A stretch of DNA of 64,000 nucleotides from an uncultured Planctomycetota bacterium (GTDB taxonomy: Bacteria; Planctomycetota; PLA2; JAEUHO01), in contig CAVVXN010000003.1 of NCBI GenBank assembly GCA_963752285.1, positions 444,179 through 508,178 of the forward strand, in the 5' to 3' direction. The position numbers and the translations under genes are program-made. Shown here in pieces: positions 1,779 through 63,010 of this stretch (position 1 is its first letter; every line of letters starts with the position of its first letter). The notes under the pieces were generated by a model, which saw nothing but the letters and a program-made list of their open reading frames with translations, made no database searches and was not told where the DNA came from.

Positions 1779-2111
1779 TCAGGCGCGCTCGTTCGCGCCG
1801 TGGGCGTGCCCGTGCCGGCAGCCGTGGCCGTGGCGGCCCCTGCCGCAACCGCAGCCTGCTCCGCCGTGGCCCTCTTCGCCGTGGCCGCGGCGGCGACGCC
1901 TCGCGGAGGGAGAGCGATGCGCGTGCGTCTCGCCTTCGGGCGCGGCCGTCGTCGTCTCCGAGGCGGACGCTCGGCCGGCCTCGGCGATCGCGGGCTCGTT
2001 CGCGGCGCGGGGACTGCATCCGCACGCGTGCCGGCGCCGGCGACGGTGCCGGCGACGGTGCCGGGGGGGGAGACCCTCGACGGGGGTCGGGGGGGATTCG
2101 GGTTCCGACAT
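1779..2111 (-). CDS. Small His/Cys/Arg/Gly-rich hypothetical protein (possible metal-binding)
   Basis: GAGGAG RBS before ATG 2111; HACGC...GCGCGRGRHGHGCRHGHAHG; directly downstream of the DUF134 gene. Confidence 0.55.
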   Translation of the reverse strand: MSEPESPPTPVEGLPPRHRRRHRRRRRHACGCSPRAANEPAIAEAGRASASETTTAAPEGETHAHRSPSARRRRRGHGEEGHGGAGCGCGRGRHGHGCRHGHAHGANERA

Positions 2112-2151
2112 GGCTTCTCCTCGATGGATGGGGGGAGAGGTGCGTGTCGCG

Positions 2152-2535
2152 TCAGGTGGCGTGACGGGGGCCGCGCCCCCGGCATCGGCAGCGCCGGCCG
2201 ACCCGCTCGGGGCCGTGCACGGGGCAGGGGCCCCGACGGGCGCGGTGTTCGACGACCACGCCGCCGCCGATCTCGAGCGCCGCACCCTGGACGAGCGCGC
2301 GCGCGACGGTGCGGCGCGCGGCCTCGAGGACGCGGGCGAAGGTCGCGCGCGACACGCCCATGCGCCGCGCGGCCTCCTCCTGATAGAGACCCTCGTGATC
2401 GGCGAGGCGGAGCGCCTCGAGGCCGTCCCACGAGAGGACGAGTCGCTCGAGCCGCGACATCGGGACGCCCTGGGGCTTCACGACGTGCGCCTCGGGCGCG
2501 TCGGCCACGCGTCGGGGCTGGACGGGACGCGACAT
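2152..2535 (-). CDS. DUF134 (UPF0251) HTH DNA-binding protein
   Basis: KPQGVP...LEALRLADHEGLYQEEAARRMGVSRATFARVLEAARRTVARALVQG..LEIGGG; C-terminal Cys cluster. Confidence 0.9.
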   Translation of the reverse strand: MSRPVQPRRVADAPEAHVVKPQGVPMSRLERLVLSWDGLEALRLADHEGLYQEEAARRMGVSRATFARVLEAARRTVARALVQGAALEIGGGVVVEHRARRGPCPVHGPERVGRRCRCRGRGPRHAT

Positions 2536-2551
2536 CCGGCACCTCTGGTTG

Positions 2552-2565
2552 TGAGCATATGCTCA
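2552..2565. promoter_or_regulatory. Perfect 14-bp palindrome, probable operator upstream of the DUF134 gene
   Basis: TGAGCATATGCTCA, AT-rich in a GC-rich background, 17 nt upstream of ATG 2535. Confidence 0.7.
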
Positions 2566-2603
2566 GAACAGGCCGTGTCCACCCCCGGTCGTGCCGATCC
2601 GGG

Positions 2604-3386
2604 TCAGGCGTCCGGCTGGGCGCCGTCGGGCCGCGCGAGGCGGATCGAGAGCGGCACCTCGAGGCCGTGGGCCCGGAGCAGCTCGGCGTCCGCGAGGACC
2701 GTCCGCGGCGCGCCCTCCGCGACCACGCGGCCCTCGTCGAGGAGCACGACGCGCGAGCAGAGCTCGAGCACGCTCTCGAGGTCGTGGGTCGCGAGGAGGC
2801 ACGCGTCGCTCCGGCTGCAAAGCAGCCCGAGCACGCGCCTGCGCGCCCGCGGGTCGAGCCCGTTCGTCGGCTCGTCGAGCGCGAGGAGGCGGGGGCGCAT
2901 CGACAGGACCGTCGCCAGGGAGGCCGCTCGGCGCTCGCCGCCCGAGAGCCGGTAGGGCACGCGCTCCTCGAAGCCCTCGAGACCGACGGCCGCGAGGGCC
3001 GCGCGCACGCGCTCCCTGACCTCGTCCTCGTCGAGCCCCATCTGGCGCGGGCCGAAAGCCACGTCCTCGCCGACGGTCGGCATGAAGAGCTGGTCGTCGG
3101 GGTCCTGGAACACGAGACCGACCTTCGCGCGGACCTCGCGCGTCGTCTTCCTCGACAGGGTCACGCCGTCGACGACCACCGTGCCCGTGGCGCCCAGGAG
3201 CCCGACGAGCGAGAGGAGCAGGGTGGACTTGCCGGCACCGTTCGGGCCGACGAGCCCCACCCGCTCGCCGTCCGCGATCTCGAGCGTGATCCCGGCGAGC
3301 GCGATCTGGCCTTCCTCGTACGCGTAGGAGAGGTCCCGGACCTCCAGCACGGGCGAGCGGGACCGGGTCGCGTCGGGCGCGGTCAC
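2604..3386 (-). CDS. cbiO: ECF-type Co/Ni transporter ATPase
   Basis: GPNGAGKST Walker A, VFQDPDDQLFMPTV.EDVAFGP, LSGGE, LDEPT; GTG start overlaps the cbiQ stop (GTGA). Confidence 0.92.
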   Translation of the reverse strand: MTAPDATRSRSPVLEVRDLSYAYEEGQIALAGITLEIADGERVGLVGPNGAGKSTLLLSLVGLLGATGTVVVDGVTLSRKTTREVRAKVGLVFQDPDDQLFMPTVGEDVAFGPRQMGLDEDEVRERVRAALAAVGLEGFEERVPYRLSGGERRAASLATVLSMRPRLLALDEPTNGLDPRARRRVLGLLCSRSDACLLATHDLESVLELCSRVVLLDEGRVVAEGAPRTVLADAELLRAHGLEVPLSIRLARPDGAQPDA

Positions 3387-4194: not shown

Positions 4195-5205
4195 CTAGGT
4201 CGTCCGGTGGGACGGCGTCCGGGGCGCGGGCGCCCGGAGGAGACGACCGAAGAGATACACCAGCCCGAAGACGAGGAGGAGCCCGAGCACGCCCGAGACG
4301 CTCGTCCAGTACCACCTCTGGTCGGGGCGGTTGTAGTCCGGGAAGAGGGCGATCCGGCTCGAGAGACGGTCGGCCGCCTCCGCGGGCGTCTCCTCCGTCG
4401 CACCGGGTTCGGGGTGCCCCGCGAGCACGTGCTGGTGGGCGACGGTCGATTCGAGCCCGTCGGGCGAGGTCGCCGCCGCGAGCGAGAACAGCCCGCCCAC
4501 GACGAGCGCCGCGGCGAGGATGCTCGCGATCGCCGTCTTGACCGGCAGGCCCTCGTTCGCCGCCACGCGGCCCGGGACGAGGTCCGGACGGAGACGGCCG
4601 AGGGCCAGGAGCGCCGCGAACGTGATCAGCCCCTCGCCGGTCCCGATCAGGACGTGGACGCCGACCATGGCGCCGAAGAAGACGTGGAAGGGGATCTGGC
4701 TCACGCCCGACAGCCCCACCTCGATCGGCACGAGCGTCGCGCCCCCGACGACGGCGCCCATCGAGGCGAGGAACGCCGCGCCGTAGAGCCGGACCGGCGT
4801 GAGCCGCTCGCGACGGCCGACCATCGCGCGGTACAGCGCGTAGCCGACGTACGAGCCGAAGACGCCCATGTTCAGGATGTTCGCGCCGAGGGCCAGGAGC
4901 CCTCCGTCCTGAAACACGAGGCACTGGACGATCAGGATCGCCGCCATCGCCAGCACGGCGGCGTCCGGTCCGAGGAGGATCGCGAGGAGCGCGCCTCCCA
5001 CGAAGTGTCCCGTGGTGCCGGGGAGCACCGGGAAGTTGACCATCTGCGCGGCGAACACGAACGCGCCGAGCACGCCGAGCAGCGGCACGCGGCGTTCGTC
5101 GAGCGTCTTCTTCGCCCGCACCGAGGCGACGGCGATGCCCGTCGCCGAGATCACACCGCATCCGGCCGCGACCGGGATCGACAGGAGCTCGTTGCCCATG
5201 TGCAT
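4195..5205 (-). CDS. cbiM: ECF-type Co/Ni S component CbiM/NikM fused to a PDGLE (NikN-like) domain
   Basis: N-terminal MH metal motif, AFVFAAQMVNFP..GTTGH..GG.L, DGGLLALGANILNM, H.LIG.GEG, C-terminal SPDGLE. Confidence 0.92.
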   Translation of the reverse strand: MHMGNELLSIPVAAGCGVISATGIAVASVRAKKTLDERRVPLLGVLGAFVFAAQMVNFPVLPGTTGHFVGGALLAILLGPDAAVLAMAAILIVQCLVFQDGGLLALGANILNMGVFGSYVGYALYRAMVGRRERLTPVRLYGAAFLASMGAVVGGATLVPIEVGLSGVSQIPFHVFFGAMVGVHVLIGTGEGLITFAALLALGRLRPDLVPGRVAANEGLPVKTAIASILAAALVVGGLFSLAAATSPDGLESTVAHQHVLAGHPEPGATEETPAEAADRLSSRIALFPDYNRPDQRWYWTSVSGVLGLLLVFGLVYLFGRLLRAPAPRTPSHRTT

Positions 5206-5345
5206 GGGGGTTCCTCCCGCGGGTCGCGAGCCGGTCCCACCCGAGGCCGCGGCGGCCCGGCGGCCGGTCCCGGGCGAGGAGTCATTGGACCCCTCCGGGT
5301 GGGGCGGTCAAGCAGCGCGCTCGGATCGCGTCCTTCTCGACCTCC

Positions 5346-6326
5346 TCAACGGGTCGCGGCGACCGCCTCGGCGAACGCGCTCGCGTCCTCGGCGAGGACG
5401 TGCGCGTAGTCCTCTTCGACGCGATCGGGCCGGCTCGAGAGACCGTCGTGGATCACGACGCTCGTGAGCCGGAGGGCCTCGCGGAGTCCCTGCTCGACCT
5501 CCGGTCGCGGCGGCTTCGCCCAGAGGAGGAGGCGCGCGCCGGACGACGCGGCCGCCGCCCTCATGCGACCGAGGTCCTCGTCCGAGGGCGCGCTCGCGGG
5601 GTCGAGCGGCGCCGGTACGAGGTTCCAGCCGTAGTGCCGCGCGAGATACGCGAACGTCGGATGCGTCACCAGCAGGGGACGTCCGTCGAGCGCCTTCGTG
5701 GCCCTCGCGAACGTCGCGTCGGCGCCGTCGAGGTCCTTCGCGAGCGCGGCGTAGCCGCTCTCGAAGCGCGTGCTCTCGTCGGGCAGGCGCCGCGCGAGGG
5801 CCTCCTCGATCACCTTCGCCTGTCGCACCGCGTCCTTCGGGTCGAGCCAGGTGTAGGGATCCGTTCCGGCGTGGCTGTGCGGGCCCTCCGGGCCGTGGGA
5901 GTGGACGATCGCGTTCGGGATGACGATCCGCTCGTCATGGAGCGGCGCCCCCGTGTCCACCACCGCCGAGACGGGGAGGGAGACGATCGCGGCCCAGGTC
6001 TCGAAGTCCGACCCGTTCAGGAGGATCAGGTCCGCGCGCTGGACCCGTTCGATGAGGCCCGGCTCCTTCTGGATCGCCCGCAGCACCTCCTCGGAGTCCG
6101 CGGAGGGCAGGGGGCAGGTCACATCGACCGCGTCGCCCGCGATGCGTCGCGCGAAGCTCGCGAGCGGCGGCGTGCTCGCCACGACCTGGAGCCGGTGCCG
6201 ACCCTCCGGCGTCGCCCTGTGCGCCTCCGGCTCGCCACCGCACGAGTTCAAGGAGACGAGTGCGAGGGCGACGAGCGGGACCGCGAGCAGCGACAGCCGG
6301 CGCGAGGGGGCGGGAAGGTGCGACAC
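5346..6326 (-). CDS. ZnuA/TroA-like metal ABC substrate-binding lipoprotein (no cognate permease adjacent)
   Basis: Hydrophobic leader ending LNSC, VVAST..L..FA.RIAGD, ADLILLNG, HSHGPEGPHSH loop, DPYTWLDP, THPTFAYLA.HYG; start uncertain (GTG 6326 or TTG 6374). Confidence 0.85.
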   Translation of the reverse strand: MSHLPAPSRRLSLLAVPLVALALVSLNSCGGEPEAHRATPEGRHRLQVVASTPPLASFARRIAGDAVDVTCPLPSADSEEVLRAIQKEPGLIERVQRADLILLNGSDFETWAAIVSLPVSAVVDTGAPLHDERIVIPNAIVHSHGPEGPHSHAGTDPYTWLDPKDAVRQAKVIEEALARRLPDESTRFESGYAALAKDLDGADATFARATKALDGRPLLVTHPTFAYLARHYGWNLVPAPLDPASAPSDEDLGRMRAAAASSGARLLLWAKPPRPEVEQGLREALRLTSVVIHDGLSSRPDRVEEDYAHVLAEDASAFAEAVAATR

Positions 6327-6363
6327 GGGACTCGTTCGACGCGAGAGGCTCCGTCCCGCGCGG

Positions 6364-6421
6364 GGGGCGGTCAAGGATCCGCGCCGGTCGAATTGACCCT
6401 GGCCGGTCCCGGTGGCAGCAT
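6364..6421. promoter_or_regulatory. Divergent sigma70-like promoter region
   Basis: Back-to-back TTGACC -35 boxes (minus strand 6369-6374; plus strand 6393-6398, followed after 17 nt by CAGCAT). Confidence 0.45.
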
Positions 6422-6439
6422 CCCCCGCGGAGTGCCTCG

Positions 6440-8098
6440 ATGACCGCGCGCATCCGAAGGGCCCTGCTGGTCGTCGTCCTCTCGCTCGCGCTCCCGTCGG
6501 CGGCGTTCGCGCATCCGCCCGACACGGTGATCCAGCGGACGACGGTCGAGGTGACCCGGGACGGCGTCTCGCTGGCGTACCGGAGCCTCTACGGCGCCAC
6601 CCTGGCGCACCTGAAGGTCGTCCGCGCCGACCGGGACGACGACGGGAAGCTGTCGCCCGACGAGGAGACGGCGGCGCTCGCGGAGCAGGCGAAGGAGGTG
6701 GAGGCGAACCTGAGCGTCCGTCTCGACGGCCGACCGTTGGCCCTCGCGCTCGCCCGCGGCGAGATCGACGCCGTGACGCCCGGAACGTGGGCGGACGGGA
6801 TGGAGACGGTGCTGACGCTCGAGGCGAAGGCCTCCGGCCTCGAGGAGGGGACGCACGCGCTCGAGATCCGGGACGACAACGTCCCCGACGCGGCGCTGGC
6901 CTCGCTGACGTACTACGTCCGCGCGGGCGGTGAGACGGAGGCCCTCTCCGTCTCGAAGGACGCGCGCGCGCTCACGTGGCGCTTCCGCGGCGTCCTGGGC
7001 GGGCCCGGCGCCCTCTCGGCGCCGCCCGTGCGCCCGGGCGGCGCCGCGGAGGGCGGGCACGAGACCTCGACCCTCGAGCGGCTCATGGGCGAGAAGGACC
7101 TGACGCTCGGGTTCGTGCTCTTCGCCCTCGTGCTCGCCATGGGCCTCGGCGCGGTCCACGCGCTCTCGCCGGGCCACGGGAAGACGCTCGTCGCGGCGTA
7201 CCTCGTGGGGTCGCAGGGGCGCGTGCGCGAGGCCGTGTTCCTCGGGCTCGTCGTCACGCTGACGCACGTCTCGAGCGTGATCGTCCTCGGCGTCGTGACG
7301 CTCGTGCTCTTGGAGCACTACCTGCCGCAGCAGATCTACCCGTGGCTCGGGGTGACGAGCGGCGCCCTCGTCTTCACCGTCGGCTACGTCCTGCTCGTCC
7401 GTATGGCGCTGGGGATCCGCGGGCACGCGCACGTGCACGGGCCGGGCGGCGTCCACCTGCCGGGGACCGGGCACGAGCACGACCACGAACACGAACACGG
7501 GCACGCGCATCAAGGCGAGCCCGCGCACGACCACGAGCACCCGCACGACCACGAGCATCCGCACGACCACGGGCATCCGCACGACCACGAGCACCCGCAC
7601 GCGCATCCCCACGGCCAGCCACACGAACATCCGCGTGCCCACGGGCACGAACACGAACACGAACACGAGCACGAACACGAGCACGAACACGGGCACGAAC
7701 ACGGTCAGGAACACGTCCACGAGCATGCGCACGAGCACCCGCACGATCCTTCGGCGCACGAGAGCGAGCCGCGCGCCTCGGCGTGGACGCTCCTCTGGCT
7801 CGGTATCTCGGGCGGCATGGTCCCGTGCCCGTCCGCGCTCGTCGTCCTGCTGATCGCGGTGAACCTCCACCGCGTCGGCTTCGGCCTCCTCCTGATCGGC
7901 GCGTTCAGCGTGGGGCTCGCGGGCGTCCTGATCGGGATCGGGATCCTGATGGTCACGGCCACGCGGCGCATGCGGAAGATCGCGGGCCAGGCGTCGTGGG
8001 TGAAGAAGCTCCCGGCGCTGAGCGCCGGCGTGATCATGCTCGTCGGGATCGCGATGATCGCGAACACGCTCGTGTCGACGGGGATGCTCCGGCTCTGA
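6440..8098 (+). CDS. RcnA/NicO-family Ni/Co transporter with exported N-terminal domain and very long His-rich loop
   Basis: Signal peptide AFA|HP; HALSPGHGKT and GMVPCPSAL motifs; multiple TM helices; HE/HD/HP repeats. Confidence 0.88.
   Translation: MTARIRRALLVVVLSLALPSAAFAHPPDTVIQRTTVEVTRDGVSLAYRSLYGATLAHLKVVRADRDDDGKLSPDEETAALAEQAKEVEANLSVRLDGRPLALALARGEIDAVTPGTWADGMETVLTLEAKASGLEEGTHALEIRDDNVPDAALASLTYYVRAGGETEALSVSKDARALTWRFRGVLGGPGALSAPPVRPGGAAEGGHETSTLERLMGEKDLTLGFVLFALVLAMGLGAVHALSPGHGKTLVAAYLVGSQGRVREAVFLGLVVTLTHVSSVIVLGVVTLVLLEHYLPQQIYPWLGVTSGALVFTVGYVLLVRMALGIRGHAHVHGPGGVHLPGTGHEHDHEHEHGHAHQGEPAHDHEHPHDHEHPHDHGHPHDHEHPHAHPHGQPHEHPRAHGHEHEHEHEHEHEHEHGHEHGQEHVHEHAHEHPHDPSAHESEPRASAWTLLWLGISGGMVPCPSALVVLLIAVNLHRVGFGLLLIGAFSVGLAGVLIGIGILMVTATRRMRKIAGQASWVKKLPALSAGVIMLVGIAMIANTLVSTGMLRL
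7421..7760 (+). repeat. Coding His-rich tandem repeats (18-bp PHDHEH units and 6-bp HE units)
   Basis: ccgcacgaccacgagcac-like units about 4 times, plus runs of cacgaa/cacgag. Confidence 0.9.
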
Positions 8099-8138
8099 GA
8101 CCCCCATCCCCGGGCGGGGCGAGGGCTTGGAGGTCCCC

Positions 8139-9907
8139 CTACTCGTAGTCCTCGTCGAGCGCGCGGAGGAACGCTGCGAGCGGCGCGACGTCGTCCTCGA
8201 CGAGCGCCATGCCGCGAAGCTCGGGCGCGCCGTTTCGGACGAGGTCGGCGCGCGCCAGCGCCGAGAAGCGGATGTAGTGGTGGAGGACGTCCTCCAGCGT
8301 GTCCGGGCGCCCCGAGTGGAAGTACGGGTCGCCGTGCCCGGTGTCGCGGAGAGCCGGCGTCTTGAACCACGCGAGCGTCCGCGGGAGCAGGTCCGCGTCG
8401 GGCGTCGAGCCGGGAAGGTCGAGCTCGCGGAGGAGGAGGGCGCGAATCGCGTTCTGCGGCCGCGGGATCTCCGGGTTCGCGAAGACGTTCCAGAGGCCGA
8501 GGTCGGCCCGCCCGGGATCCGCCGCCGCGGGCGCCCGGCGGAAGGGACCGGCGGCGTCCGGGTGGAGCGGGCTCGGGGGGAGGAACGCGGCCGGGTCGCC
8601 GTTTCGCGCCCCGAGGTCGGGGACGGGCAGCGCGAGGAACGCGCCGTCGCCGTGGACCGCGTCGTACTCGGCTTGCGACACGCCCACGTCGTGGAAGAGG
8701 AAGTCGGTGAAGTCGGGCGGTGCGTGACATCGCACGCACGACCCGACGCCGCCCGCTGCGATCGTTTCGGGCGGGAGCGGTGAGGACGGCGGCTCGGAGA
8801 GGAAGATCGCGAGCCCGCGGCGTTCGAGGGTGCCGAAACGGAACGCGTGGGCGTGGTGCTCGAAGTGCCCGTCCTCGGCGGTGACGTCGCTCGGGCTCGC
8901 GAGGCTGGCGAGGGCCGAGCGGAGGCGCCGCGCGTAGTCGAGGTCCGTCTCCCCGGACGCCGGCGCGGCGGGCAGGCCGTTCTTCCGGAGGAACACGTCG
9001 TAGGGCGAGCCGTCGAAGCGGCCCGTCACCGGGTCCTGGAGGAACACCAGCTCGCGCACGTACTGGGCGACGACGCGCGCGACCGCGTCCAGAACCTCCT
9101 CGTCGCTCGCCGTCCGGACGTCGATCCGATACGACGGCCCGATCAGGAGCTCGGACGGCAGGAGGTCGCCCCGGGCCCCGAAGAACGTCGCGTAGGACCG
9201 TCCCCCGTGGTCCTCGGCGTTCGCGTCCGTCCCGTCGTCCTCCCGGACCACGCGGGCTACGTTCGCCACGGCGAGGCCTCGCTCCGAGGGAAGCCACCCG
9301 TAGTTCCTGCCCGTCAGCGTGCCCCGGACGAGGTCCTCGAGCGTCGCGAACTCGCCGTCGAAGTGGAAGAGCGTCGGGACCTCGCGCGGGAGCGAGGCGC
9401 CGACGAGCGGGGGGCGTTCCGGGGCGTCACGGTGGCGCCGTCCTCGCGCGCGGGAATCGGGCTCCGGCGCGCGAAGTCGGCGTACGTGCGGATCCCGCCT
9501 CCGGCCACGCCGACCTGCTCGTCCACCAGGTGGCACGCAGCGCAGTTCATCGAGAGGCCGGCGTAGGGTCCGGGGAGCGGCGCCCCGTCGGCCTTCGCGG
9601 ACACCTGGACGACCGGATCGGCGACGGCGAGGGGCTCGTTGACGGACCGGCCGATCGTGCGGCTGGCGAAGAACTCCGCGAAGCGCGTCTCGCGGAACAG
9701 GCGCTCGCCGAGGACGGACTCGGCCGAGTCGGGCACCTCGCGGGCGGCGGACCCGCACCCCGCGAGGAGCACGGCGATCAGGAGCGCGCCGGGACGGGAG
9801 AGCGCGGGGCGCCCCGGCGCCGGGCGCCTCTGTGGGTCCCGCCCGCTCGGGCTCCACGTCGTCGGGCCCCGCCCGCCACGACGGTCCCGGCGCGGACCCG
9901 GCCTCAT
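8139..9907 (-). CDS. Diheme cytochrome c peroxidase/MauG-superfamily lipoprotein, split by a 1-nt frameshift at 9409-9414
   Basis: N part: lipobox LLAGC, LGERLF.ETRF, CAACH, RNAP. C part in another frame: FDGEF.TLED, CVRCH, FKTPALRD...PYFHSG...TLEDVL.HY. ATG overlaps the upstream stop (ATGA). One extra C in the C6 run restores RNAPPLVG. Confidence 0.85.
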
Positions 9908-39837: not shown

Positions 39838-40355
39838 GCTCCCGAAGCGTACGCGCCGGGCCACGCGCGGGCACGAGAAGGCGAGACGAACGGGGGGCGG
39901 GGGCCCCGGCCGCGGCGACGGGCAAGGCGTCGGTTCTGGCGTCGGCCGCCGGCCGGGGCGTCGCGCGGCGGTCGGTCGCGCGCGTCGAGGACCTGGACGG
40001 GCCGCGCGCGCCGGGGGCGTCCCTCGTCGCCGGGCCTCCCGGAAGACGTCCCGTGGACCTCGCCTCGCCCGTCGCACAGGCGCGCGCCCTCGGGCTCCCG
40101 ACGACCCCGGACGCCCCCTCCCACGCCCTACGAGCCCCATTTCTCGCGTGCTGGCATCTACGTACGCACTCGATGGAACCTTGGATACCACATCGATGAA
40201 GGACTAAGATCCTGATCCTCTTGTTTCCGAAACTTGTCAATTGGGGGCTAGCGGAAACGTCCTCCTCCTCCGTATGATCCCCGCGGATTACGGAAACGGA
40301 CGGCAGGGGCCACGCGAAGCGGCGTCGGGCCGTCGGGCGATGACGAGGTTTCCAG

Positions 40356-41132
40356 GTGCGGCGAGCGATCGGGAGGAGTGTCGCGATCTCGTTCCTGGGG
40401 CTCGCGGTCCCGTTCCTGAGGACCCCGCCCAGCGAAGCCGGGTGATGCGGCGGTCGCTCGGCCGCCAGTCTGGCGGCCCTCGAGATCCACTGGGACCGCG
40501 TCGCCTCCCTCGCTCCGCTCCCGTTCCAGATGCGGCCGTCCGACGCCGCCACGCCGGACGACCCGTTCGCCCGACTCGACAAGCCCGCGATCGTGTTCGT
40601 CCGCCCGGCCGACGCGACGGGCGACGTGTACGACAAGATCCAGACGAACGTGTTCAAGAACGAGAAGGTCGCGCTCGGCGTGAAGGCGTTCCGGACCGTG
40701 AGCATGTCGCCGGAGAGCGTCGCGCAGGATCCGATCCTCGCCGGCGCGGGCCACGAGGTGCCGCGGCTCTTGATCGTGGACCCCGTGAAGCGGGCGGTCA
40801 CGGTGCTCGAGAAGGCGAAGCTGCGTCCCGGGCTGCTCTACGGCGAGATGCGCTCCGTAGTCGGGCACTGCTACGAAGACGGCCTCGACGCGGTCGTGAA
40901 GGCGCACCTCCGGCTCCTGACCGAACGCGACCAGCTCGCGAACCAGGAGAAGGTGCTCCGCGAGAAGGCGGCGCGGCTCGCCGACGAGACCGGCGCGAAG
41001 GCGGAGCGGGACGGCCAGGAGGTGGCGGCGCAGATCGCCGAGGTGCAGCAGAAGCTCGAGGACCTCGGGGCGCGCGAGGCGAAGCTCTGGTGTCTCCGTT
41101 CGCGCCTCGACCCCGCGCACGCCGCGAGCTGA
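40356..41132 (+). CDS. Putative secreted selenoprotein (Sec30 in GUCGG); thioredoxin-like fold lacking CxxC, with C-terminal coiled coil
   Basis: GAGGT RBS 6 nt before GTG 40356; signal peptide MRRAIGRSVAISFLGLAVPFLRTPPSEA; in-frame TGA 40443-40445; frame continues into ORF 40530-41132; SECIS-like hairpin downstream. Confidence 0.7.
40457..40484 (+). promoter_or_regulatory. Putative bacterial SECIS element
   Basis: CTCG-GCCGCCA-GTC-TGGCGGC-CCT-CGAG hairpin beginning 11 nt after the UGA; apical GU about 23 nt from the UGA; apex CAGUCUG resembles E. coli fdhF CAGGUCUG. Confidence 0.65.
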
Positions 41133-41303
41133 GCGCTCGGCCCTACGTCGGGAGCTCTCGCGGCGCGCTCTCGCCGGTGTCGTCGCGGGACCTACGCCGT
41201 GGACCGCGCGGCGCCGCGCGCACACCGCTGAAGCCCGCGGCCCTCCCGACCGATCCCCGAGGACGGGGGTGTAGGTCCACGCTCGCCCCGGGGAGTCGTT
41301 GCC

Positions 41304-41564
41304 ATGCCGATCCGACCGAGGGTCCGGACCCGCGTCGCCCGATCGATCTTCGCCCTCCTGCCGCTCCTCGCGATGGGCCTCACGGGCTGCCGGCAGGCCT
41401 CGTGCGTCTGGCAGAACACGCGCGACGCCGTGGTGGCCGAGATGCCCCACGCCTGCTGCCCCGACGCGTGCGGAAACGTGTACGCGGAGCCCGTGTACGC
41501 GTCGTGCTGCGGCGGCGACAACGGGGTCGGGACCGGGGGCACCGGCGCGTTCGCCCGGCGCTAG
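41304..41564 (+). CDS. Small Cys-rich lipoprotein
   Basis: GGAG RBS; lipobox LTGC; C, CC, C, CC pattern in about 58 mature residues. Confidence 0.6.
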   Translation: MPIRPRVRTRVARSIFALLPLLAMGLTGCRQASCVWQNTRDAVVAEMPHACCPDACGNVYAEPVYASCCGGDNGVGTGGTGAFARR

Positions 41565-41639
41565 CGCCGACGCTTCCTCACGTGCGCTCGTGAACGTCTT
41601 CGGGGCGTCCGAGGGCGCCCGTGCGCGCCGAGGCTCCGC

Positions 41640-42338
41640 TCAGACCGGCGCCGGCGGAGGCAGGTCGTGCCACGTGCGGCCCCCGTCGCGGACCGCCTTT
41701 CGGTAGAGGTGCACGGCCTCGTCGTCGTCGTAGATCTCGACCTGCCCCAGGGCGACCTGGCGCGCGGCGAGCGGCGCCGCCGTCGCGACCACCGCGGCCC
41801 CGCGCCGAAGGCCCATCAGACGGCCCGGCGCCAGCCGCTCGAGCAGGTGGAGGGTCAGGCGTTCCGCCCGGACGGGGTCCCAGAGCTCGAGCACGTCCCG
41901 GTGCCCGCGATCGAGCAGGTAGACGCGGCGCCGCCGCTCGGTCTCCCAGAGCGGGAGCGTCGTCCGCTCGTGGGCCTCCAGATCGTCGGCCTCCTCGGCG
42001 AACTGGCGGACGATGGAGCGCGGGTCGCCCGCGGTACCGGGCGTGCAGATCAGGTCGTCGAACGCGGTCTCCAGGTCGGCCACGGGCGCGCCGTCGGCCT
42101 CGTCGCCGAAGCGGTTTCGGAGCGAGGCCTCGAGGGCCGGGCCCTGCGTCTCCCGAGCGTGCTCCCGGAGCCGTGCGAGCACCTCGCGCGCGCGCTCCCG
42201 CCACGAGACCAGCGCGGGCCGCTCCGCGGTCGCCGGCTCGGCCGGGTCGTGGTGTCCTGCCGGGTTGCGCGGGCCGCCCGAGGTCGTGTCGGGCCCCTGC
42301 CCGTGACCGCGCCCGCGGCGTCGCTTGCGTCGAACCAT
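41640..42338 (-). CDS. Hypothetical protein
   Basis: GGAG RBS before ATG 42338; natural composition and GC3 bias; no family recognised. Confidence 0.65.
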   Translation of the reverse strand: MVRRKRRRGRGHGQGPDTTSGGPRNPAGHHDPAEPATAERPALVSWRERAREVLARLREHARETQGPALEASLRNRFGDEADGAPVADLETAFDDLICTPGTAGDPRSIVRQFAEEADDLEAHERTTLPLWETERRRRVYLLDRGHRDVLELWDPVRAERLTLHLLERLAPGRLMGLRRGAAVVATAAPLAARQVALGQVEIYDDDEAVHLYRKAVRDGGRTWHDLPPPAPV

Positions 42339-42488
42339 CGGCGCTGACTCCAATCCCCGTCCGGACGATCGTCGGGGCCAGGATCGCACGCGCGGGCGAC
42401 ACCGCAACCGGCCCGCGGCCGGCGCCCCTGGCCAAGCGCGAGGGCCGAGAGGCCGCGACCCGCGCGACGCGCGTGCGGAGGCCCCGAC

Positions 42489-42527
42489 ACGAGAAGGCCC
42501 TCGCGTCGATCGCGCGACGCGAGGGCC
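42489..42527 (-). terminator. Probable intrinsic terminator
   Basis: 13-bp perfect stem GGCCCTCGCGTCG/CGACGCGAGGGCC, then TTCTC on the minus strand, 20 nt after stop 42547. Confidence 0.6.
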
Positions 42528-42546
42528 GATGGCGCTCCGGCTCGGA

Positions 42547-44685
42547 TCAGCGAGACGGCGGCGGGAACGAGGGCGCGGAGGGCGATCCCTGCGGCGCCTC
42601 CGGCGCGACCGGCGCCGGGCCACCGGGCGCGGGCGCGCCTTCCGGCGCGGCGCCGGGGACGGCGTTCCCGGGCTGGTTCGTCTCGGCCGCGCCCTGCGGC
42701 GGGAGCGGCGGCAGCATCGCGATCTGGAGGAGCGGCGCGGTCGTGTCCTCGGGCCTCAGGTCGAGCGTCCGGAAGATCTCCGCGTTCGCCTTCTCGCGCT
42801 CGCCCAACGCGACGTCGAAGTACGCGCGGACGAGGTGCGCGTCCGCGTCCTCGGGGTGGTTCATGAGGTGCAGGTCGAGGAGCTCGATCGCGCGGTCGAA
42901 GGTCTGGGGGTTCGGGTAGCTCGGGCGCGGGTCGAACCGGTAGCCGCGCGGGAAGGCGCCGAGGTCGGCGGCCTTCTGCAGGGCCTCGGCGGACCTGTCG
43001 AACCAGCCCTTCGCGAACGCGGCGTTCATCACCGCCATCCAGGCCTCGCCGTTGGTCTCGTCGGCGAGAGCCGCGGCGTAGAACTGCTTGTAGGCGTTCT
43101 CGAAGTCACCGGCCTTGAAGGCGTCCATGCCCGTGTCGAAGTAGCTCTTGCCCGGCGCCTTCTCGCTGGTTTGGCCCTCGGCGGGCGGGTTCACCGTGCC
43201 GCTCGGCGCGCCGAGCACTCCGGGCTGCACGACGGTTCCGGGCTGCACGACGGTCGGCGCGCCGCCCTCGACGACGATCGGCGACTCGTCCACGATCACG
43301 TAGCCCGGGTCGTAGTACGTGTAGTCCGTCGCGTAGTAGACGACGCCGAACCCGAAGGCGGGAAGGCCGTGGTACCACCACGGGCTGTACGCGCCGTACC
43401 ACCACGGGTCCCAGTAGACGCCCCAGGTGCCGCCCCAGTACGACGGGGCGAAGTAGCCGTAGTAGTTCCAGCCGCCCCAGGTCCGCCAGTACGGGCGGTA
43501 CCGGCCGCCGAAGTCGCCGTGGCGGTGGCTGAAGTACGAGGACCCGACGCCGCCGTGGTCGTAGCGCACGCCGGCGCGCGGTCCGAGGGTCAGTGCCGAC
43601 GAGCCGGAGCGGACGCCGCCGCGCGCGGTGATCGCGCTCGACACGCCCGCGCGGGTCGCGAGCGCCTCTTCGCTCCCGCGGCGGACGCCGCCGCGGACGA
43701 GGCCGCTCGACGTCGTCGTCGCGGAGCCGGGGAACGCGCGGCTGCCGCCGGAGCGCACCGCGCCGCGCCCGAAGGCGGGGCCGGTGGTCCGGACGGTCGC
43801 GCCGCCCGTGGTCGTGCCGGGCGTCGCGCGGGTGATGGTCGGCGTCGGAGCGGAGCCGGGGAGCATCCGGCCGCGCGCGCCGCCGAAGCGGTTCTGGAGC
43901 CGCTCGCGGAAGGTCGTCGTCGGCGCGCTCGGGGCCGAGGTCACGCCGGCGGCCTGCGTGCCGTTCTGGCCGCCGCCGTAACCCCGCGGGGCGAAGGTCC
44001 GGCCGCGGAGGGCGTCGAGACGCTGCCGAAACGTCTGCGTGTCCCCGCGAGTGGACGGCTGCGTTCCCGGGACGGCGACGTTCGGGGTCGTCGTGGGGGC
44101 GAAGGTTCGGCCGGGGAGGACCCGGTTGCCGCCCCGCTCCTGCGACCAGGTGCGGAGTCGCTCCAGGGCCTGGCCCTGCTGCTGGGGCGTCACGACGCGC
44201 GGCGCCGCCTGGTTCGGGACGAAGCGCGCCTCGTTTCGCGGCCAGGACGGCTGGACGCTCGGCTGCGCGAACGTCCGGGACGGCGCGACGAAGCGCGTTC
44301 CCGGATCGACGGTGCGGCCCGGGAACGACCGGAGGCCGTTCGCGCCGCCGGAACCCGCCGCAAAACCGCGCGAGGGAGCCGTGTAGGTGGCCCGGGGCGC
44401 CGTGTAGGTCGGCCGGGGGGCCGTGTACGTGGGCCGGGGCGCCGTGTAGGTGGGCGTCGGGGCCGTGTTGCCGCCCGACGCGCGACCGGGGAAGAGACGC
44501 GAACCGCCGCTCGACCAGCCGCCGCGCGAGCCGCCCGACGGCGCCCCGCCGCCGCGGAACACGCGACCGCTCGCGCCGCGCACCGCTTGACCGGTGCGCA
44601 CGCCGCCTCCGCGGGCCTCGGCGACGCCCGGTACGAAGACGGCGAGCGAGGAGAGGCTCACCACCACCATCAGCGTTCTGTACAT
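42547..44685 (-). CDS. Secreted protein: long Gly/Arg/Thr/Pro low-complexity region, Tyr/Trp/Gly-rich segment, C-terminal TPRs
   Basis: Signal peptide AEA|R; TYTAPRP repeats; YWRTWGGWNYYGYF...WWY; G..AFKAGDF..A TPR helices. Confidence 0.82.
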   Translation of the reverse strand: MYRTLMVVVSLSSLAVFVPGVAEARGGGVRTGQAVRGASGRVFRGGGAPSGGSRGGWSSGGSRLFPGRASGGNTAPTPTYTAPRPTYTAPRPTYTAPRATYTAPSRGFAAGSGGANGLRSFPGRTVDPGTRFVAPSRTFAQPSVQPSWPRNEARFVPNQAAPRVVTPQQQGQALERLRTWSQERGGNRVLPGRTFAPTTTPNVAVPGTQPSTRGDTQTFRQRLDALRGRTFAPRGYGGGQNGTQAAGVTSAPSAPTTTFRERLQNRFGGARGRMLPGSAPTPTITRATPGTTTGGATVRTTGPAFGRGAVRSGGSRAFPGSATTTSSGLVRGGVRRGSEEALATRAGVSSAITARGGVRSGSSALTLGPRAGVRYDHGGVGSSYFSHRHGDFGGRYRPYWRTWGGWNYYGYFAPSYWGGTWGVYWDPWWYGAYSPWWYHGLPAFGFGVVYYATDYTYYDPGYVIVDESPIVVEGGAPTVVQPGTVVQPGVLGAPSGTVNPPAEGQTSEKAPGKSYFDTGMDAFKAGDFENAYKQFYAAALADETNGEAWMAVMNAAFAKGWFDRSAEALQKAADLGAFPRGYRFDPRPSYPNPQTFDRAIELLDLHLMNHPEDADAHLVRAYFDVALGEREKANAEIFRTLDLRPEDTTAPLLQIAMLPPLPPQGAAETNQPGNAVPGAAPEGAPAPGGPAPVAPEAPQGSPSAPSFPPPSR
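44375..44468 (-). repeat. 21-bp coding tandem repeat (TYTAPRP about 4 times)
   Basis: gccgtgtaggt recurs with a 21-nt period. Confidence 0.85.
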
Positions 44686-44971
44686 GGGCATCTCCGATCG
44701 AGGGTCGAAGCGAGGCCGGTACCCGCGAGGACCTGCTGAACAGGCTACCGCGAACGGTGGGCCAATGAACCCGCTACACGCGAGAATTCGGCGTTTGGCG
44801 GCCGAATGGCCGAACCGGGTCGATTCCGTCCGCGTTCGGTTCGCGCGGGCGTGTCCCACCCGTTCGAACGCGTTCGCCCGTGGACCGCGCGCTGCCGATT
44901 CGGCACGATGGACGGCGCGGCGCCGGACCTTCCCCGACGCGCCGTGCGCGCCTTCGGCTCGACGCCGTCGG

Positions 44972-62359: not shown

Positions 62360-63010
62360 CTACCTCCCCTGACCCAGCCCCCTTCGAACCTCCTGCTCAT
62401 GCTGTCGCCACCACTCCGCCCAGTCCTTCCTGGCATCCGCCGGAGAAGCGCCGGCCGCCTCCCCCGACGTGCTCGTGCTCCGAAGCGTGATGTTTCCGAG
62501 TGCCTCACTCGCCCCCAACCGCACGAGGCTGTCCTCGTCCGCGAGCATCTCGATCAAGACGGGCACGGCATCGACAGCCTTCATCTCGCCGAGCGCCTTG
62601 GCCGCCGCCGCCCGCGTGAGCGCGTCCGGGTTCGTCCTCGCCGCACCGGTGAGAGCCTGCGCGGCGCGTTCGCCGCCCAGGTCTTGGAGCCGGAAGACCG
62701 CATCGAACGACTGGGCGGCATCGCTGCTCTCGAGAGCGGCGATCCGCCGATCCACTTCGGCCTCACGTCTCTCGATCTCGGGCCCACGTTCGGTCGGTCG
62801 CGCAGCACCGGAAGGCGTTCCCGGCGACGGGGCCTCCCGTCGTGTAGAGCCTCCTCGCCCCATCGCGTAGCCGACCAACAGACCGCCGCAGAGCCCGCTC
62901 AGGCCGGCAACCAAGGCGACCGCAGTTCGAGGCCAAGGGGCCATGTCCTGGATGCTATGCCCCGCCTCTCCCTCGAGCAGCGTCCGCTCGTCCCGGTCGT
63001 GGATCGTCAC
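62360..63010 (-). CDS. Membrane-anchored HEAT-repeat protein
   Basis: TM helix; RAAAAKALGEMK...AVPVLI..L.DED..VR..A..AL..IT; W..WW; start uncertain (63010 or 62944). Confidence 0.75.
   Translation of the reverse strand: MTIHDRDERTLLEGEAGHSIQDMAPWPRTAVALVAGLSGLCGGLLVGYAMGRGGSTRREAPSPGTPSGAARPTERGPEIERREAEVDRRIAALESSDAAQSFDAVFRLQDLGGERAAQALTGAARTNPDALTRAAAAKALGEMKAVDAVPVLIEMLADEDSLVRLGASEALGNITLRSTSTSGEAAGASPADARKDWAEWWRQHEQEVRRGLGQGR

Follow-up and report, generated by a model that had tools for sequence, protein, structure and literature searches.

In mammalian thioredoxin reductase, a C-terminal Gly-Cys-Sec-Gly tail, in which Sec stands for selenocysteine, forms a selenenylsulfide and passes electrons to a partner. 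The selenocysteine insertion sequence (SECIS) of Escherichia coli fdhF is a stem-loop that begins about 11 nucleotides (nt) after the UGA codon and presents G-U in its loop at +23/+24. Features of both are found in a gene at 40356-41132 on the plus strand of a 64,000-nt stretch of contig CAVVXN010000003.1 from an uncultured Planctomycetota bacterium; this whole stretch is called the window here, and its positions are used throughout. Judging from its sequence and that of its relatives, 40356-41132 is very probably a single gene, whose product is an exported selenoprotein belonging to a family not described before. The decoding of Sec is canonical; the novelty lies in the family and in its layout. 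Like the reductase tail, the protein has a Gly-flanked vicinal Cys/Sec pair on a flexible terminus. However, the order of the pair is reversed (G-U-C-N/G-G), the terminus is the N-terminus of an exported protein and there is no flavoprotein body, which makes the likeness a mechanistic analogy and not homology.

Bacterial thioredoxin-fold selenoproteins (Trx, Grx, DsbA-like, DsbG-like, thiol:disulfide interchange protein, SaoT and Trx7/PDZ) are listed in Table 1 of a 2026 inventory (PMC13188914). The present protein is likewise bacterial, has a thioredoxin fold, occurs as Sec/Cys homologue pairs and carries its SECIS inside the open reading frame (ORF). In the listed proteins Sec is part of UxxC or CxxU at the start of helix 1, whereas here that site is empty and the U-C pair lies about 45 residues upstream, and the window protein had no hit to their Pfam or NCBIfam models. 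SaoC, SaoB, SaoL, HgcA and MbdU also have Cys next to Sec; several of them carry signal peptides and are extracytoplasmic, and databases typically truncate them all, as they do the present family (10.1101/2022.07.06.499078; PMC13188914). Those proteins, however, have the order C-U, belong to other folds and phyla and stand in conserved organometal-related neighbourhoods (10.1101/2022.07.06.499078; PMC13188914), and their NCBIfam models do not match the window protein. The motif of 'hypothetical protein DG' (GUxG, NF049953), which was found in Desulfosediminicola (PMC12013277), is superficially like the G-U-C-G of the window, but the orthologues here read G-U-C-N-G, and no match to NF049953 was obtained at E ≤ 1 with NCBIfam release 20, which is assumed to include it.

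Table 1 of the inventory covers 119 prokaryotic selenoprotein families and has no entry in which a U-C arm precedes a CxxC-less thioredoxin fold (PMC13188914). Its entries carry Pfam, NCBIfam, CDD or PANTHER identifiers; the comparison was made with the Pfam and NCBIfam models themselves and, for CDD and PANTHER entries, by description. The window protein gave no Pfam or NCBIfam family match at E ≤ 1, only sub-threshold coiled-coil noise, and full-text literature searches found no description of the family. An initial annotation of the locus had not recognised this as a described selenoprotein family, a view that holds against Pfam, NCBIfam and the 119 families of that table, none of which fits (PMC13188914).

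Conservation of the in-frame UGA

The features of the gene, in order along the window, are the following.

40345-40349, plus strand: Shine-Dalgarno-like GAGGT, read from the sequence, with a 6-nt spacer to the start codon
40356-41132, plus strand: full selenoprotein coding sequence (probable), 258 residues plus stop, with TGA 40443 read as Sec
40356-40439, plus strand: predicted signal peptide, residues 1-28, with three Arg, the hydrophobic core VAISFLGLAVPFL and then S-E-A (hydropathy, conserved context)
40443-40445, plus strand: probable Sec codon UGA (U30); TGA in 9/9 aligned genes, Cys aligned in seven database homologues
40446-40448, plus strand: invariant Cys31, codon TGC in 9/9 aligned genes
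40449-40505, plus strand: conserved segment G-R-S-A-A-S-L-A-A-L-E-I-H-W, residues 32-50, which encodes the SECIS and forms a short helix before the conserved Trp46
40457-40484, plus strand: bacterial SECIS stem-loop, core stem 40460-40466 / 40472-40478, apical loop AGUCU 40467-40471
40530-40532, plus strand: ATG used as start by gene callers, giving a truncated product of 200 amino acids (P0002) without signal peptide and without Sec
40578-40871, plus strand: thioredoxin-fold domain, residues about 75-172, no CxxC (AlphaFold2 model, Foldseek)
40884-41087, plus strand: C-terminal antiparallel helical hairpin, helices 177-209 and 214-244 (AlphaFold2 model)
41130-41132, plus strand: stop codon TGA of the gene

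One genome-contig scan yielded nine orthologous loci (L001-L009), all from metagenome-assembled genomes of Planctomycetota with 58-76% GC; eight hold the N-terminus, and the remaining one is a C-terminal fragment at a contig end. A TGA occupies the homologous codon in 8/8 of the loci that hold the N-terminus, at 42-49% identity to the window protein, and the surrounding context reads signal peptide-(E/R)-A-G-TGA-TGC-N/K-G-(SG)-R-S-S/P-A-S-L-A-A/E/Q-L. The true stops of these eight orthologues are TAG in seven and TGA in one. Two loci contain a tandem paralogue as well. That of L002, at 4992-5702 (+), has its own signal peptide followed by A-D-A-G-TGA-C, and that of L001, at 5067-5495 (+), retains TGA-TGC in a disrupted copy, the leader of which contains a stop and which runs into AT-rich sequence after about 120 codons. 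Because the TGA is shared by eight loci, a sequencing error, a private nonsense mutation, or a stop followed by a separate gene is very unlikely.

Cysteine-containing forms complete the picture on the protein side. Database relatives number 129, of which 13 are metagenomic proteins of 145-221 amino acids found by a word-indexed search and 116 were found by an exhaustive phmmer search (67 of these at E ≤ 1e-10). Seven full-length homologues (P0024, P0032, P0042, P0045, P0055, P0060 and P0068) have a signal peptide and Cys at the site of U30/C31, in the clusters CGCC (GCGCCGRSSAA), CCC (GCCCGRSAAC), CGC (CGCWADRSE), CSSC (GCSSCKGDSE), C (DCDNRSAAS), CACC (GCACCSRSAAA) and CEHC (GCEHCSRSKA). Four further relatives (P0086, P0104, P0125 and P0128) have the signal peptide and no Cys arm. 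Thus an aligned TGA or Cys in homologues, which had been proposed as a check on the gene, is found as TGA in all eight loci with an N-terminus and in both tandem paralogues, and as Cys in the seven full-length database proteins.

As many as 43/129 database homologues start no more than six residues before an xAxLxIxW motif, that is, directly past the TGA position, and by their sequences this is the truncation expected of mis-called selenoproteins. The codon of Leu39, which lies inside the hairpin loop, is CTG in six of nine orthologues, the window included, and TTG in three, and it is for this reason that the truncated database proteins begin with 'L' or 'M'. The codon alignment comprises nine genes, and protein conservation and phylogeny were assessed on 61 rows. 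In the maximum-likelihood tree the window protein falls into a clade with all nine DNA-verified Sec forms (support 99/97), and the Cys forms require at least four changes among the Sec forms and the truncated forms, the latter being presumed Sec forms only. Within the family, Cys forms appear to be less frequent than Sec forms.

A Protein Atlas query with a natural Cys form returned only clusters of 'hypothetical protein' from Planctomycetota and weak Thioredoxin_7 look-alikes; the look-alikes, at 0.83-0.85, carry Thioredoxin_7 or DsbH. A further profile search gave eight proteins, all annotated 'hypothetical protein' and none with a Pfam domain. The family is known only from Planctomycetota, in the nine loci and the Atlas hits. 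The thioredoxin-like module also forms part of large planctomycetal proteins: in P0065 it is fused to Ser/Thr kinase, Glucodextran_B and FGE-sulfatase domains, and in P0104 to HEAT repeats. P0027 has a weak, sub-threshold WW-domain match beside it (E 4.8e-4; 20.5 bits, cutoff 26.9).

Within the window, the reading frame itself points the same way. Read through the TGA, it is translated as MRRAIGRSVAISFLGLAVPFLRTPPSEA-G-U-C-GGRSAASLAALEIHWDR. An in-frame stop at 40341-40343 limits the frame upstream, and between this stop and the TGA the sole ATG, GTG or TTG is GTG 40356. No such codon occurs in 40446-40529, and the first start of translation table 11 after the TGA is ATG 40530. The GC content at third codon positions (GC3) in the frame of the gene is 0.90 in 40356-40442, 0.89 in 40446-40529 and 0.96 in the body, and 0.69 upstream of 40356. 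When both strands of the whole window are considered, two TGAs have stop-free flanks with GC3 ≥ 0.85 on both sides. One is TGA 40443; the other is an antisense artefact over a fumarase gene, with antisense composition. TGA 40443 is the only credible TGA amid continuous coding signal in the 64 kb. Since TGA serves as the ordinary stop codon in 23/30 window ORFs, the genetic code is not reassigned. The initial annotation had located a GAGGT ribosome-binding site, a GTG start at 40356, a single in-frame TGA at 40443 and an ORF start at 40530, all of which are present at these places, and had warned that gene callers would miss the gene, as indeed the automated ORF starts at ATG 40530 and loses both the signal peptide and Sec.

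The composition of the window is 71-77% GC. Two long ORFs overlap the gene in other frames, 40241-41593 (+) of 450 amino acids and 40248-41450 (-) of 400 amino acids, with Arg/Pro/Gly-rich translations. They were rejected as artefacts of the 74% GC content, and GC3 favours the frame that starts at 40356.

The hairpin downstream of the UGA

The transcript of 40460-40478 would form the hairpin GGCCGCC-AGUCU-GGCGGCC, a perfect stem of 7 base pairs (bp), in which GCCAGTCTGGC corresponds to 40464-40474. The core stem begins 14 nt past the UGA, and the extended stem of the minimum free energy (MFE) fold, which starts at 40457, begins at 11 nt; the spacing of 11 nt proposed earlier is therefore correct for the extended stem. 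As in fdhF, a start at about 11 nt is combined with G-U in a small apical loop (here G26 and U27, numbered from the U of UGA) and, in L002 and L005, with a bulged U on the 5′ arm. The stem sequence differs from that of fdhF, and binding of SelB is a prediction here.

The four criteria for bacterial SECIS elements given in the inventory are a loop of 3-9 nt with G in its first two positions (N1-G-[G/U]-N-N2), an upper stem of 4-16 bp, a distance of 16-37 nt between UGA and loop, and an MFE of -7.5 kcal/mol or lower (PMC13188914). In the nine orthologues the loop AGUYU conforms to N1-G-U-N-N2, the upper stem has 5-8 bp, the MFE is -10.2 to -16.4 kcal/mol and the distance from UGA to loop is 21 nt in eight of nine genes and 27 nt in L007, so that the hairpin agrees with all four published criteria (PMC13188914). 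TGAs with a structure of this kind are rare in the window: for only 4/762 does a perfect stem of 7 bp or more, with a loop that contains GU, start 8-20 nt downstream.

Conservation of the hairpin at the nucleotide level, another check that had been proposed, was observed across the orthologues. The 15-mer CCGCCAGTYTGGCGG has one exact copy in the window and is found exactly in nine gene copies, namely that of the window and eight in seven loci (one per gene copy, two in L002). The core CCGCC-AGUYU-GGCGG is invariant in the nine orthologues except L004, in which the outer C:G pair is replaced by G:C, a compensatory change that alters the amino acid too. Covariation in the stem is modest (score 0.094 versus 0.027 in shuffles, a value reached by 4/500 shuffles). 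Synonymous sites are more telling. Among invariant residues with four- or sixfold degenerate codons, a single codon is used in all nine genes for three of the four residues in the hairpin core, as against 0/23 elsewhere (Fisher p about 0.0014, from 3/4 versus 0/23). The frozen codons are Ala37 GCC, Ser38 AGT and Ala40 GCG, and AGT is rare, accounting for 6/589 Ser codons (1%) in 20 window ORFs. These frozen synonymous sites are the strongest argument for a SECIS.

The Sec-Cys arm, the fold and the proposed function

The N-terminal region has the character of a signal peptide. In the window protein the maximal Kyte-Doolittle mean over 11 residues is 2.26 in the signal region and no more than 1.21 in the remainder, and all full-length forms (16/16) have 1-3 Lys/Arg followed by a hydrophobic core, with an 11-residue maximum of 2.2-3.3 versus at most 1.8 elsewhere. 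The Sec/Cys cluster is directly preceded by a small-x-small site, in the window S-E-A|G-U-C; such sites are of the A-x-A type. Cleavage by signal peptidase I would thus probably occur after A28 and would leave U30 as residue 2 of the mature protein. Two other export signals were considered. The RR of the window protein is not a conserved feature of the orthologues; a Tat signal was therefore rejected, and a Sec-type signal (Sec here denoting the export route) was taken instead. The signal peptide of a lipoprotein ends in a lipobox, [LVI][ASTVI][GAS]C; no lipobox is present here, since the context is E-A-G-U with Glu at -3, and in the Cys forms position -1 is D or G and the spacing varies.

Alignment-based modelling with AlphaFold2 (61 sequences; mean predicted local distance difference test (pLDDT) score 88.2, predicted template modelling score 0.80) places a beta-alpha-beta-alpha-beta-beta-alpha unit (E78-82, H90-111, E113-117, H119-124, E137-142, E147-152, H158-172) after the arm and a short helix at 36-41. 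The pLDDT is below 50 for residues 1-4 and for residues 24-31, the disordered arm, and its block mean is 86-97 for residues 31-50. A Foldseek search of the PDB with this model returned DsbD-gamma first (E 5.2e-3, probability 1.00, template modelling (TM) score 0.59 on the target), followed by PDI-family domains, ERp19, AGR2/3 and DsbH; the matches were mostly thioredoxin-fold chains, and none was at E ≤ 1e-3. The proteins of the DsbD-gamma/Thioredoxin_7 type (1uc7, ERp19 1sen, AGR2/3, PDI b′) are accordingly the best structural matches, with probability 1.00 and target-normalised TM scores of 0.5-0.6. At E ≥ 5e-3 and 9-20% identity, however, no relation to them is detectable at the sequence level, and unlike them the window protein has no CxxC and has an extra helical hairpin and the N-terminal arm. 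A profile search of the PDB with the sequence gave only coiled-coil noise. The thioredoxin-like body without CxxC that had been read from the sequence is thus borne out by the AlphaFold2 model and the Foldseek matches.

The window protein has only three Cys residues, C31, C171 and C246. At the position of the classical active site it reads R-P-A-D-A-T-G-D, and L001 and L002 read S-H-P-G-G-G-G-D, a variable and acidic segment. L003-L007 have C-D-(E/D)-A-(A/T)-(G/S)-C (C-x5-C) at the thioredoxin CxxC position, aligned to window residues 83-90, where the window protein, L001 and L002 have no Cys; in these members of the family the motif may provide an additional site for redox chemistry or metal binding. 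P77, F112 and D192 do not vary across the 61 sequences, and P136, R137 and L188 hardly do. The pair P136-R137 directly precedes strand 3, shows conservation of at least 90% and, from its position, may correspond to the cis-Pro. The Sec-Cys arm is the only conserved reactive group of the protein. A prediction of a two-copy complex of residues 31-258 scored 0.00, with controls not run, and speaks neither for nor against dimerisation.

Expression of the gene would then proceed as follows. Translation would start at GTG 40356, and the first 28 residues would act as a Sec-type signal peptide. The UGA at codon 30 would be recoded by the canonical bacterial route, in which SelB with Sec-tRNA(Sec) binds the stem-loop 21 nt downstream; because the UGA comes so early, failed recoding would release the signal peptide alone. 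Signal peptidase I would cut after S-E-A to produce a mature N-terminus G-U-C-G-G-R-S, so that a vicinal selenol/thiol pair would be carried on a flexible N-terminal arm tethered to a CxxC-less thioredoxin fold, which keeps its Pro-Arg loop, and then to a helical hairpin. By analogy with the reductase tail, there is roughly an even chance that the U-C pair alternates between a selenolate/thiolate state and a selenenylsulfide ring of eight members, as a periplasmic redox centre of the tail type. The redox role would be thiol-disulfide exchange or reduction of an oxidant, with the thioredoxin-fold body possibly serving as a platform for docking or substrate binding.

Genomic context and alternative explanations

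The selenoprotein gene stands alone. Upstream on the opposite strand is an O-methyltransferase gene in the window and L001 and a GNAT gene in L006 and L008; the upstream gene of L004 is a fragment of the GNAT cluster, assigned by cluster and not by domain scan. A scan of 40100-41700 detected no promoters or terminators. Downstream, a convergent gene with the motifs VPWR...LWDP...LTLHLL...WH is present in the window at 41640-42623 (-), in L002 at 6300-6995 (-), in L003 at 2398-3297 (-) and in L004 at 1876-2811 (-); the window and L002 copies have no Pfam match. A large secreted-looking protein rich in Gly, Tyr and Trp is encoded at 42547-44859 (-) in the window, at 7079-8692 (-) in L002 and at 7990-8757 (-) in L006; the conserved portion at its C-terminus is similar to TPR repeats (motif PRGYRFDPRP), and it belongs to no Pfam family. 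L007 has a cyclophilin gene downstream, and L009 a downstream fragment that belongs to the cyclophilin cluster. Directly downstream of the selenoprotein gene, an ORF of 86 amino acids at 41304-41564 (+) has a lipobox-like L-T-G-C and the Cys pairs HACCPDAC and ASCCGG, with no Pfam family and no counterpart in the nine loci. ARAGORN reported a 'tRNA-???' with a two-base anticodon at 62685-62761 (-), which has no Rfam support and is probably a false positive in GC-rich coding DNA and not tRNA-Sec.

The proposal of the initial annotation that the gene encodes a selenoprotein is strongly supported by the conserved UGA, the Cys forms, the SECIS and the fold. Several observations count against it or against parts of the mechanism. 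With respect to the hairpin, a 65-nt fold is no more stable than its shuffles (z = -0.12), and in DNA of 74% GC folding energy alone is therefore not evidence; 4/7 pairs of the core stem do not vary and are uninformative; and the two outer stem pairs are in register in only 4/11 sequences. The peptide encoded by the hairpin, R-S-x-A, is conserved in the Cys forms as well, so part of the nucleotide conservation is at the protein level. In the tandem paralogues 39 and 42 nt separate the conserved hairpin from the UGA, more than the range of 16-37 nt allows, a displacement that is offset in each by a second, nearer hairpin, added by an insert of 5-6 codons. As regards the machinery, neither selA, selB nor selD is among the 28 window ORFs scanned, which represent 64 kb only, and the 64-kb window has no tRNA-Sec/selC (no tRNA and 0 Rfam matches). 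In the window protein, S replaces the G of a V-V-T-G motif kept in nearly all homologues. A redox mechanism in particular is disfavoured by the lack of conservation at the classical active-site position and by the lack of any conserved operon or redox partner across the nine loci, and a strict vicinal redox pair by the variable spacing of Cys in the Cys forms, one of which has a single Cys.

Three explanations dispense with Sec. If the TGA were a true stop, a 29-codon upstream ORF would be followed by a separate gene for a cytoplasmic protein starting at the Leu39 codon or at ATG 40530. The products of gene callers, P0002 and the 43/129 database homologues, match this arrangement, and Leu39 is TTG in three of nine orthologues; in the other six, including the window, it is CTG. 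Against a true stop, residues 31-38, between the TGA and Leu39, are conserved, Cys31 is invariant and GC3 is high; the coding stretch 40446-40529 offers no ATG, GTG or TTG, and the Cys forms run unbroken from the signal peptide. A true stop is therefore very improbable. It is extremely improbable that the TGA arose by a sequencing or assembly error or by a recent nonsense mutation (TGC to TGA), which would make the window copy a pseudogene. The two codons differ by one base, and the window copy is deviant at the V-V-T-G motif, but the TGA is shared by eight independent assemblies and the two paralogues, no frameshift is present, GC3 is 0.96 along the body and the hairpin is maintained. Readthrough of the UGA without Sec, through near-cognate insertion of Trp or Cys or stimulated by the hairpin in organisms without Sec machinery, is also improbable. 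It would agree with the lack of Sec machinery in the 64-kb window. Against it, the loop and spacing of the hairpin fit the SelB-type SECIS model, homologues align Cys, which is the signature of Sec/Cys pairs, and TGA is the main stop (23/30 ORFs). Planctomycetes that decode Sec are, moreover, on record: one survey reports a complete Sec machinery in some of them, namely Gemmata, Isosphaera and two Porphyra-associated strains (PMC4807772).

A different question is whether the arm of a real selenoprotein acts in redox chemistry at all. As the main rival of the redox reading, it is possible, if rather unlikely, that it is a ligand for a soft metal or metalloid (Cu(I), Hg(II), Cd, Zn or As(III)) and that the protein is a periplasmic chaperone, scavenger or sensor module. 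The crowded and variable Cys motifs (CGCC, CCC, CACC, CEHC with its His, and CSSC) look more like metal sites, and L003-L007 add a C-x5-C pair where thioredoxins have their active site, an arrangement that resembles the thioredoxin-fold copper chaperone Sco. In addition, the vicinal CU/CC motifs of SaoC, SaoB, SaoL and HgcA have been argued to indicate heavy-metal handling (10.1101/2022.07.06.499078). However, the nine loci share no neighbouring gene for the handling of metals or organometals (metal transporter, mer, cop or ars), one Cys form has a single Cys, and P0086, P0104, P0125 and P0128 have the signal peptide without the arm. Sec-related motifs in the 2026 inventory are also mostly redox motifs, for example UxxC and CxxU (PMC13188914).

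The selenoprotein reading adds a family from a phylum whose selenoproteome is barely charted. Without the signal peptide and the arm, the window ORF call of 200 amino acids and at least 43/129 relatives would pass as cytoplasmic proteins without an assigned function. The SECIS 15-mer, which is constant across genomes of 58-76% GC, is usable as a probe for SelB recognition in Planctomycetota. For a thioredoxin-fold selenoprotein it is unusual to have Sec at codon 30, in the predicted second position of the mature chain and away from the classical active site, and this layout is a simple, testable model for vicinal Se-S chemistry. It is tentatively suggested that Sec-Cys, as residues 2-3 on an arm facing a CxxC-less platform, might be the first selenenylsulfide centre of the tail type outside thioredoxin reductases. 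If this were true, Planctomycetota would possess a novel class of periplasmic catalysts of their own, acting in redox chemistry or in the handling of soft metals or selenium.

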